A stretch of 64,000 nt of DNA from NCBI RefSeq assembly GCF_044324875.1, contig NZ_CP172185.1, one strand, 5' to 3'. Positions within the stretch are counted from its first letter, which is position 1. The number at the start of each line of letters is the position of its first letter. Of the stretch, positions 40,901 through 43,900 are shown piece by piece. A program made the position numbers. The stretch comes from Escherichia coli. Lineage in GTDB: Bacteria > Pseudomonadota > Gammaproteobacteria > Enterobacterales > Enterobacteriaceae.

Positions 40901-43900
40901 ATAAATATACATGAACGCAAAAATCAGATACGGCCTGTCGGCTGCCGTTCTGGCGCTGATTGGTGCTGGCGCATCTGCTCCTCAGATACTTGATCAGTTT
41001 CTGGACGAAAAAGAGGGTAACCACACAACGGCATACCGCGATGGGTCCGGCATCTGGACCATCTGTCGGGGTGCCACGATGGTGGATGGAAAACCCGTTT
41101 TTCCCGGAATGAAGCTGTCGAAGGAAAAATGCGACCAGGTTAACGCTATTGAACGTGATAAGGCACTGGCATGGGTGGAGCGCAATATTAAAGTACCTCT
41201 GACCGAACCACAGAAAGCGGGTATTGCGTCATTCTGTCCCTATAACATTGGCCCCGGTAAGTGTTTCCCGTCGACGTTTTATAAGCGGCTTAATGCCGGT
41301 GATCGAAAAGGCGCCTGCGAGGCGATTCGCTGGTGGATAAAGGATGGTGGGCGTGACTGCCGTATCCGTTCAAATAACTGCTATGGACAGGTTATTCGTC
41401 GTGACCAGGAAAGCGCATTAGCCTGTTGGGGGATAGATCAGTGAGCAGAGTCGCCGCGATTATTTATGCTCTGGTTATCTGCATCATCGTCTGCCTGTCG
41501 TTGGCGGTCAATCATTACCGTGATAACGCCATAGCCTACAAAGAACAACGTGATAAAAAAGTCAGTGAGCTGAAGCAGGCGACCGCCACCATCGCTGACA
41601 TGCAGCAGCGTCAGCGTGATGTTGCTGCGCTCGATGCAAAATACACGAAGGAGTTAGCTGATGCGAAAGCTGAAAATGATGCTCTTCGGCGCAAGCTTGA
41701 TAATGGTGGCAGGGTGCTCGTCAAAGGAAAATGCCCTGTGCCATCCTCAGCCGAAACCTCCAGCGCCTCCGGCATGGGCAATGATGCCACCGTCGAACTC
41801 TCTCCAGTTGCTGGACGAAACGTTCTCGGTATCCGGGACGGAATTATCCGCGACCAGACAGCACTGAGAACGCTTCAGGAATACATCAGGACGCAATGCC
41901 TTCGATGATAGCGATAATTTTACTCATCATCCTTCACATCTGGCTCTGTAGACAGGGTGGTGATCACTTCTGGAGTGAATCCAGATTAAACATCTCATTG
42001 CTGATGCTTGATATTGAGCATCTGGCGCGCGGTAAGGGGCTGCGTTGAGATAAGAGCCAGTCATTAAAAATACCTGGATTTAGCCTCGCATTCGCGGGGC
42101 TTTTTTATTGCCATTACAAAAGCCACTCCCTACAGAGTGGCTTTGATAATGGCTTATACCCTACACGGGATAACTTAACTGATATCCCTTTTAACGGATA
42201 AAGGTATTCAAGCCTGACACATCATGCGCTGTATCGTCGCTGTATTCCCGCATTAACCATGACCGTAGCCCGACGGGGAACTCCTTCTGCGCGAGTGTGC
42301 GGGAATAATCAAAAACGATGCACACCGGGTTTTTACCGCGCTAATGATTCGCGGGTTTGTCCCTCATGCTCGCCAGTCCGGTGCGATGGTGGAAGAAACC
42401 GGAAGCTGTATTACAGAAAGTGCTACTACTGTATCCTGATGCGATGTATGTAATGTGAGTCAGATAATGGCACAGGATGTGGTGATGTGGCAGTCTGGAA
42501 CACAGGATATATTGTCAGAATAAGACCCGTAGGAATAAAAATGAAAAGACGCCTTTCACTACTTTTTCTGTTATCTGCCCTGGCAGTGGGATGCTCGCAG
42601 CAAAAAGCTGATGAGCCCCGGCAATTAGTGACGGTGTATCCACGATATCCGGAATATGCTGCAGCAAATTATATCAAGGGGCTGGTTGAGGTTAAGTTCG
42701 ATATTGGTGCTGACGGGACTGTGACACGGATCGTTTTTCTCCGCTCAGAGCCTCATAATTTGTTTCGTGATGAAGTGGTGAAGGCCATGGCGAAATGGAG
42801 ATTTGAAAAGAATAGTCCCCGTCAGGGAGTGAAGAGACAATTTATCTTTACGCCATCACGTCCCTGATGCTTCCAGGTAGAGAGGGGCTGGAAGCAGGAG
42901 AAAAATGAAAGAGCCAGCGGTTATATTTTTGTCATGGCTGACGAGAAATGATGGAAGAAGGCGTTGTATGCCACACAACGCCTCACTGTTCATTTCTTCT
43001 TTTTCTCTGGTGTAACCCGATGAATAAGAGTTGCACTGGTTTCCGATGAGATGGCGATATGCTCGGGCAAAGTATGCTGGCAGTTTTCCAACTGGTCAAA
43101 AATACCTGCTCTCGTCTGTTGCAATGCCTGCAGCATGCGGCGGCAATGCGCCTTTGCTTTTGCTAACCATCTTTCCTTACTCTATCAGTCGCTGCGTGAA
43201 CTCATCATGGAATACCAGGTAAATGCGGATGTTATCGGTTTTGGCTACGCAGCATAGTACAAAACGGACAGGTGCATCCCGGAATGGGGGAGGCGTCACA
43301 TGTCCCTGTGATGGTTGTTCCGGGTAATGCACTGTGTGGGGCATAAAAATGTCCGATAATTTTACTTTCTACCGCAGTTAGTTGATTCGTTGGTCCTGGT
43401 AGCACATTGGGCGAGGGTTTAAATGCCAGGCAACTGAAGGATGATGTTGCAAGGGAGATAGCGAGAATATTTCTGATTTTCATTTGATGATGCCTCTGTG
43501 TGAAATGACGGTAAACGACGCACTTGTGCCGGCACATAATAGCAAGCATCAGAATAGATCAGATTCGATTCTTGCTGTAAGTGATAATTATTCTCGTTTT
43601 TTTCGGGTCCTTTCCGGCGATCCAACAGGTTACGGGGCGTCGACCTCGCGCAAAACAACTCCTTATGAAATTTTTACGGGAAATTCAGATCCGTTCTTCT
43701 TTCTTGTAAGTCATTGTGTATATTGAATTTTATTTGTTCTGAGAAAGGATCTGATAAGGCTTCGTTTCGCCTGAAAAGGCAGTTTTAAGATCCTTTCTTA
43801 AAAAAACGGGTCATTTTCTTGCTGGAGGGGATGCTGGTGTGAGGGTTAACAAGAAAAAGCTGGCTGAGATTTTTGATGTTGATGTGCGGACTATATCCAC

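Follow-up and report, generated by a model that had tools for sequence, protein, structure and literature searches.

Does the short open reading frame (ORF) beside the cos site of a phage-21-type prophage of Escherichia coli encode a functional protein and, if so, what does that protein do and for whose benefit? We addressed this question in a 64,000-nucleotide stretch of DNA (NCBI RefSeq assembly GCF_044324875.1, contig NZ_CP172185.1), hereafter called the window, which represents a phage-21-type lambdoid prophage. A first-pass annotation had noted an 83-residue protein encoded on the minus strand at 43232-43483, and the ORF list and the sequence bear this out:

43232-43483, minus strand: coding sequence of a cysteine-rich precursor, 83 codons, with the stop codon at 43232-43234

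The ORF runs from ATG to TAA, and the encoded protein is MKIRNILAISLATSSFSCLAFKPSPNVLPGPTNQLTAVESKIIGHFYAPHSALPGTTITGTCDASPIPGCTCPFCTMLRSQNR. It is a genuine protein-coding gene of the lambdoid prophage. Our preferred interpretation, to which we assign a probability of about 0.45, is that it is a lysogenic-conversion gene derived from an envelope protein of the Zur regulon, aiding the host in zinc-poor conditions.

The coding nature of the ORF is established by its pattern of conservation. A search of 5.8 billion clustered proteins revealed relatives 58-70% identical in a second type of E. coli prophage, in Citrobacter koseri and in Salmonella. In codon alignments of the window or phage 21 copy with diverged orthologues, the proportion of synonymous differences (pS) was 0.76-0.81, i.e., saturated, and that of nonsynonymous differences (pN) 0.17-0.22; between diverged orthologues the ratio of nonsynonymous to synonymous substitution rates (dN/dS) was 0.10-0.25 where measurable. 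Third codon positions held 38-51 of the 62-90 differences that separate the prophage, Citrobacter and Salmonella alleles. The phage 21 copy is intact and differs from the window protein at 3 amino acids, and 35 viral contigs from IMG/VR encode the full-length protein, in which no more than three residues vary, next to Nu1 genes that are 27-100% identical to each other. A few frameshifted copies were seen (P0003 and P0006). These, together with the lack of a clear promoter or terminator and the absence of the ORF both from the phage 21 record and from the Prokaryotic Genome Annotation Pipeline (PGAP) annotation of an identical RefSeq genome, might suggest a chance ORF in cos-flanking DNA, kept solely because packaging needs that DNA. 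However, among Escherichia, Citrobacter, Salmonella, Serratia and other genera it is the protein and not the DNA that is conserved, homologues also occur at loci without a cos site, and the low dN/dS with saturated synonymous sites effectively excludes such an origin. The doubt initially raised about this ORF, that it might not be conserved, is thereby removed across several genera.

In place of the cysteine-rich gene, both annotations have short ORFs on the plus strand, overlapping the 3′ end of that gene, namely a 40-residue ORF in PGAP (WP_258736186.1, window 43135-43257) and, where PGAP has that ORF, a 60-residue one in the phage 21 record (CPT_21_75). As selection acts on the minus-strand frame, these calls may be spurious. 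PGAP also reports a 48-residue minus-strand ORF (WP_226454076.1, PHROG 4843) at 42990-43136 of the window. In some GenBank records the cysteine-rich protein appears in a form of 105 or 106 residues that begins at an in-frame ATG further upstream; all relatives begin at an equivalent 'MK(I/V)', and this form therefore starts too early. The start codon that we retained is preceded by a ribosome-binding sequence, read from the sequence:

43493-43497, minus strand: Shine-Dalgarno sequence AGAGG, 9 nt before the ATG

Purine-rich boxes (GAAGG, GGAG and AAGGG) stand at the equivalent place in four orthologues.

The family to which the protein belongs comprises ~60 distinct members of 79-90 residues, collected by a profile search of 1.84 billion representatives and by scanning 100,044 species genomes with a degenerate DNA pattern. 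The pattern, built on the signature described below, was highly specific: 31 of its 32 matches were true members, all of them in Enterobacterales, and the sole outsider, in Hoeflea, was a chance match. Members occur in Serratia, Rahnella, Raoultella, Kosakonia, Phytobacter, Superficieibacter, Siccibacter, Shimwellia, Enterobacter, Citrobacter and Salmonella. Neither the window protein nor any of 24 relatives matched a Pfam family at E ≤ 10, which agrees with the early remark that the protein is unrelated to Bor and to the heat-stable enterotoxins. NCBIfam gave only subthreshold signal-peptide noise for the gene, searches of PHROGs, PADLOC and PDB returned no match to it, Rfam returned none on the region, and we found no description of the family in the literature. 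The peptide can thus rightly be called uncharacterized, as had been supposed. Two further sequences, P0066 and P0067, are long, eukaryote-like proteins rich in Asn, Ile and Thr, with a ubiquitin-like N terminus and PLPGCNCPKCTELR repeats. They carry 4-5 repeats of the form P-(I/L)-P-G-C-N-C-P-K-C-T-x-L-R with three cysteines each, a resemblance of motif and not of descent that may reflect convergence on a metal-binding knuckle.

Alignment of the relatives divided the precursor into an export signal and a small mature domain with a cysteine-rich signature:

43424-43483, minus strand: signal peptide, residues 1-20 (MKIRNILAISLATSSFSCLA), with a predicted signal peptidase I cut between A20 and F21
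43235-43423, minus strand: mature protein, 63 residues, ~6.6 kDa, pI ~8.5
43247-43306, minus strand: signature G-T-C-x3-P-x2-G-C-x-C-x2-C-T-x-L-R, residues 60-79, with the invariant spacing C-x7-C-x-C-x2-C

The proposal that the protein bears an N-terminal signal peptide is well supported, at the level of prediction. The hydrophobicity profile shows a charged start, MKIRN (K2, R4), and a hydrophobic core, ILAISLA, followed by SFSCLA/FK, where the slash marks the predicted cut. The 'MK' start, the core and the A-x-A/F junction are kept across 24-41 relatives, and 24 diverse ones share A20 and F21 without exception. Cleavage by signal peptidase I between these two residues is thus the predicted outcome. 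The description of the protein as secreted holds insofar as Sec-dependent export to the periplasm is supported, and fails insofar as release into the supernatant is not.

Position 18, at -3 from the predicted cut, is C in the window protein. Because the sequence S-F-S-C matches the permissive PROSITE lipobox pattern, and because UniRef names one C. koseri homologue entry 'Lipoprotein', we considered whether the protein might be a Bor-like outer membrane lipoprotein lipidated at Cys18. We rejected this very improbable alternative: A20 and F21 are invariant but Cys18 is not, most relatives having A, S, V or H at this position; the distant relatives show an A-x-A/F signal peptidase I site, and so Cys18 is not a lipobox cysteine; and a match to the Lambda_Bor Pfam family is absent. 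It follows that of the five cysteines described as clustered near the C terminus, four (C62, C70, C72 and C75) do form such a cluster, while C18 lies within the signal peptide.

The mature protein consists of a variable N-terminal half, a predicted helix with the motif E-x2-I-x3-FY-x2-H, and a conserved C-terminal knot. The four clustered cysteines are invariant in all full-length relatives and, with A20 and F21, make up the invariant positions of the family; histidine is frequent in relatives but not invariant. AlphaFold2 (AF2) gave a predicted local distance difference test score (pLDDT) of 42 for the precursor (20 sequences) and of 61 for the mature domain (41 sequences), the latter model with helices at residues 12-27 and 53-61.

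The genomic settings of the chromosomal relatives point to zinc starvation. Strong comparative evidence, from Zur boxes, zinc-starvation neighbors and linkage to pliG in Salmonella, places the chromosomal family in the Zur regulon of numerous Enterobacterales. The palindrome TGTTATnnnATAACA is the gamma-proteobacterial Zur-box consensus reportedly put forward by Panina et al. in 2003. Among the 28 species loci with enough upstream sequence for scoring, 24 had a match of at least 10/12 to this palindrome within 250 nt upstream of the gene, mostly 37-110 nt from the ATG; in the control, of 977 windows taken at random from these loci, 11 (~1%) had such a match. The species loci with a match represent at least ten unrelated genomic contexts. 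The C. koseri homologue has a Zur box (11/12) 39 nt upstream. In Salmonella a 12/12 box precedes the co-oriented gene immediately upstream, which codes for PliG (E = 1e-57 to PDB 4DY3 and 4DY5). Zur has been shown experimentally to control pliG in E. coli, from a site 34 nt upstream (PMC4219657). In loci of the family the Zur-box motif also precedes azt-like genes and cobW, which has boxes of its own.

The neighboring genes tell a similar story. One distant homologue lies in the context of a znu-like ABC operon with paralogues of thrS, pyrC and hemB, another is directly downstream of cobW, and a third adjoins an SBP_bac_5 ABC transporter. In Superficieibacter the neighbors include AztD and ZigA, which exceed the NCBIfam cutoffs with 454 and 698 bits, respectively. 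The most divergent members occur in two settings, either between dksA2/folE2/thrS-paralogue genes and cobW with a FUR-family gene, or behind pyrC2-hemB2 and adjoining cobW with a FUR-family gene. Lastly, zur itself is found among the neighbors of the family.

Two of these chromosomal loci showed further features. In the Salmonella island (L010 and L013, ~4450-7200), a SPATE-type autotransporter gene is followed by the Zur box, pliG and the cysteine-rich gene, and the latter by a Fur box (13/14), a bor homologue and an omptin gene. Zinc- and iron-responsive operators thus alternate before envelope and virulence genes. A divergent member (L093, 3001-3243) adjoins ycgN-ycgM-ycgL-minC, the neighborhood of pliG in the E. 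coli K-12 chromosome; this hints at an ancestral link between pliG and the cysteine-rich gene.

How did such a gene come to lie in a prophage? In the window, we placed the cos site by alignment to the phage 21 record OL657228, in which cosQ is annotated 23-29 nt from the end:

43605-43634, plus strand: cosQ (GGGTCCT, 43605-43611) to the right genome end at the cosN nick, after 43634

The cysteine-rich gene lies ~120 nt to the left of cosQ, and Nu1 starts at 43839. By this placement it is the last gene before cos, with transcription running leftward and antisense to that of the late genes; its position just beside cos had been correctly surmised. Over the 601 nt that surround the ORF, the window is 100% identical to E. 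coli F1022 (NZ_OY754357.1) and 97% identical to the right ends of phage 21 and of several other phages. Of 5426 complete E. coli genomes, 1222 (~22%) contain this region at ≥90% identity, 1218 of them at ≥95%.

The claim that the gene occupies the position of bor is accurate for the approximate place only. Phage 21 carries both bor (41068-41361) and the cysteine-rich gene (42532-42783), ~1.2 kb apart, and the latter is therefore not a replacement for bor; in the window no bor homologue was detected by tblastn with phage 21 Bor. On the plus strand, the genes upstream code for lysozyme, the spanins and a lipoprotein with a TonB C-terminal domain (CTD; 42538-42867). This lipoprotein has the lipobox LAVGC and consists of the TonB-CTD alone. 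It could interfere with TonB-dependent receptors, and its label phrog_1267 ('Rz-like spanin') looks like a misnomer.

The cysteine-rich gene has several features consistent with a moron, i.e., an accessory gene of lysogenic conversion. It is oriented opposite to the late genes, and phage 21 has it whereas lambda does not. Its GC content is 46.8% versus ~52% for the neighboring lysis and terminase genes, and the same gene is found beside several different Nu1/terminase types. Moreover, homologues persist without phage genes beside icd in C. koseri and in the Salmonella island with the bor homologue and the omptin gene. Persistence where phage genes are gone argues that the bacterium, rather than the phage, benefits. 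At the C. koseri locus (L007-L009, ~3760-5255) the homologue lies between icd, the attachment gene of phage 21 and e14, and an extra LpxL/LpxP-type lipid A acyltransferase gene, and phage genes are absent within 5 kb; this locus may be the remnant of an integrated element. We discarded an apparent trace of cos in front of the Citrobacter and Salmonella copies, the match being short and, in Salmonella, located inside the pliG coding sequence.

Two elements upstream of the window gene could bear on its expression:

43536-43544, minus strand: candidate extended -10 element TGcTATTAT, giving a 5′ untranslated region of ~45 nt, with no good -35 element
43582-43596, unstranded: Fur-box-like palindrome TGATAATTATTCTCG, matching 12 of the 14 specified positions of TGATAATnATTATCA

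The candidate -10 element, which the consensus scan did not report, is identical in phage 21 and is not kept in the second prophage allele (L004). Downstream, a strong hairpin devoid of a T-run lies ~250 nt beyond the gene, past the 48-residue PHROG 4843 ORF. The palindrome lies 113 nt upstream of the start codon, with cosQ 9 nt to its right. It is found in all 35 viral loci, scores 14/14 in the second allele (L004, 4866-4880), and lies 113-135 nt upstream of the gene across both prophage alleles. However, lambda (NC_001416, ~48450-48464; L053, 2151-2165) has the sequence TGATAATCATTATCA, a 15/15 match, at the same place without the cysteine-rich gene. In lambda, the second allele, phage 21 and the window the palindrome is invariably 8-10 nt to the left of cosQ, and the flanking DNA differs. 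As lambda has the element without the gene, the palindrome is a feature of the cos flank and not evidence for the gene, and we no longer regard Fur control of the cysteine-rich gene as supported. The palindrome may be a packaging element, or else a Fur operator for the leftward cos-proximal unit.

Other small ORFs were observed in the cos-proximal regions of related prophages. Lambda has an unannotated 64-residue minus-strand ORF at ~48109-48303 (L053, 1810-2004), beginning MSTKNRTRRTTTRNIRFPNQMIEQINIALEQKGSGNFSAWVIEACRRRL. The DUF3950 gene located after the cysteine-rich gene in the second allele (L004-L006) is a homologue of this lambda ORF, and the window has none. Between the cysteine-rich and DUF3950 genes of L004, at 5345-5479 on the plus strand, a 44-residue ORF with a textbook lipobox (VKYFALISALLLSAC/AGPAGSYWGVTPANSEVCPSGKSASGECR) and two further cysteines is another candidate for a small exported moron product.

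What, then, might the protein do? We propose that the family protein would act in the periplasm during zinc starvation, most likely as an accessory for high-affinity thiolate binding or handling of zinc, with the four cysteines as ligands and perhaps the histidine of FY-x2-H as an additional one. Zinc binding by the mature protein is suggested by the conserved cysteines. Lambdoid phages would have captured one chromosomal copy as a moron. This copy has lost its Zur operator, so that in the lysogen it might be expressed from a phage promoter, independently of Zur. The lysogen would then be provided with additional amounts of an envelope factor for zinc starvation where zinc is scarce, e.g., in the inflamed gut. 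The Zur boxes and zinc-starvation clusters lead us to favor a role in metal or envelope physiology over that of a toxin or a serum-resistance factor.

A number of observations weigh against this zinc-related proposal. As the prophage copies are devoid of a Zur box, the regulatory argument reaches the window copy by homology only: no box of at least 9/12 was found within 400 nt upstream in the window, in phage 21 or in the second prophage allele (L004-L006), and none of the 35 viral loci had a box of at least 10/12 within 300 nt upstream. The Rahnella and Citrobacter braakii copies have no Zur box either, the scan for consensus promoters and terminators yielded nothing convincing for the window copy, and we found no zinc- or Zur-dependent transcription or expression data in the published literature. 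The periplasm being oxidizing, the four cysteines may just form two disulfides made by DsbA. The poor AF2 models do not allow the geometry of a metal site to be judged. To our knowledge, the known periplasmic zinc proteins ZnuA, ZinT and AztD use His, Asp or Glu rather than a Cys4 site. Finally, coregulation is no proof of a metal function, because Zur regulons include the nonmetal protein PliG.

A bolder version of the zinc proposal, which we regard as possible but on the unlikely side, is that the product is a 6- to 7-kDa Cys4 'zinc-catcher', periplasmic or released, that would feed importers of the ZnuA or AztC type, with the Zur-free phage copy present in about one-fifth of E. coli genomes. 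In a variant of the zinc-catcher idea, the Fur-like palindrome of the cos flank may be a real operator, and the gene may have been rewired from zinc to iron.

The chief rival to a zinc-binding function is a disulfide-stabilized host-defense factor of the periplasm that would use zinc starvation as a 'host' signal and, like the lysozyme inhibitor PliG, inhibit or bind an antimicrobial peptide or enzyme of the host without any metal. It gains its standing from the preference of the periplasm for disulfides, which four cysteines in an oxidizing compartment would suit, from the use of His by known zinc proteins, and from the precedent of PliG, which shows that such inhibitors occur in Zur regulons. 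In Salmonella the gene is directly downstream of pliG and under the Zur box of pliG, with the autotransporter gene before and the bor homologue and omptin gene after, and the invariant Phe at the mature N terminus suggests a binding determinant. Nevertheless, many members belong to plant-, soil- or insect-associated Serratia, Rahnella, Kosakonia and Phytobacter, members adjoin zigA, aztD, znu-like genes or zur rather than defense genes, and similarity to known inhibitor families is absent. We hold this explanation to be less probable than zinc handling. An exclusion factor that would act with the adjacent TonB-CTD lipoprotein to block TonB-dependent receptors against superinfecting phages or colicins is improbable. 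Small exported prophage proteins such as Cor and Llp do block receptors, and the lipoprotein gene adjoins the cysteine-rich gene in 32 of the 35 viral contigs, the two forming one mosaic module. Yet no TonB-like gene accompanies the second prophage allele (L004-L006) or any chromosomal homologue, PADLOC found no match, and Zur control of the chromosomal members would remain unexplained.

Even less credible, in our opinion, is the idea of a pre-pro-peptide whose Cys-rich C-terminal 20-mer would act as a secreted peptide toxin or bacteriocin. The overall layout is suggestive: precursors of the enterotoxins STa (PF02048) and STb (PF09075) likewise have ~70-85 residues, a signal peptide, a variable middle part (~40 residues of 'pro' region in our protein) and a conserved Cys-rich C terminus, and are encoded on mobile DNA, as is this gene in the accessory region of a prophage. 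However, the enterotoxin families of Pfam went unmatched even at E ≤ 10; the number and the C-x7-C-x-C-x2-C spacing of the cysteines differ from those of STa and STb, and the spacing also from that of EAST1; and there is no guanylin-like CCELCCNPAC core. No conserved processing site, exporter or immunity gene was seen in the contexts inspected, and the family, in contrast to the enterotoxins, is widespread under Zur control in nonpathogenic Enterobacterales and common in genera that are not enteropathogenic.

The gene shares several traits with the known morons of lambda, bor (Bor/Iss) and lom. Like them, it codes for a small exported protein, antisense to the late operon and between the lysis genes and cos; as for bor, its presence varies among related phages, and in Salmonella the homologue directly adjoins a bor homologue. 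Unlike Bor/Iss (PF06291), to which it has no sequence similarity, the protein is predicted to be processed by signal peptidase I rather than lipidated, and the gene, unlike bor, descends from a chromosomal family with Zur operators. Its chromosomal relatives resemble ZinT, AztD and PliG in having Zur boxes, Sec export signals and zinc-gene neighbors. PliG is also prophage borne in Salmonella, where PDB entry 4DY5 bears the name 'Gifsy-1 prophage protein'. The cysteine-rich protein differs from these three by its size (~6.6 kDa), its unrelated sequence and, for the window copy, the missing Zur box. Moreover, the ligands of ZinT and AztD are histidines, and the candidate ligands of the cysteine-rich protein are its four cysteines.

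Other small cysteine-bearing peptides tied to metal homeostasis, to which the family may be likened, are the bufferins and SmtA/BmtA. Bufferins are Sec-exported metallophores that respond to copper excess, i.e., ribosomally synthesized and posttranslationally modified peptides whose cysteines are modified by enzymes of the MNIO family, and SmtA has a C-x-C-x2-C motif. Unlike for bufferins, no MNIO/DUF692 or DUF2063 partner gene was found in more than 40 loci inspected, and the family has no Pfam match to DUF2282 or to metallothioneins.

These data define a new protein family, outside Pfam, NCBIfam and PHROGs, with a branch spread by prophages. They also expose an annotation gap, as a conserved gene beside the cos site of the classical phage 21 was missed both by the curated record and by PGAP, a concrete case of the underannotation of small proteins. 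The family adds a testable component to the physiology of zinc starvation and to nutritional immunity in Serratia, Citrobacter, Raoultella, Kosakonia and Salmonella. In evolutionary terms, the prophage gene would be a neat case of a moron acquired from a chromosomal stress regulon, with the native operator lost. If our zinc proposal is true, a Cys4 protein that binds zinc in the periplasm would represent unusual chemistry. If the zinc-catcher idea is true as well, lambdoid phages would be spreading a fitness or virulence factor against the withholding of zinc by the host, and the family would represent an unrecognized class of zinc-starvation proteins.

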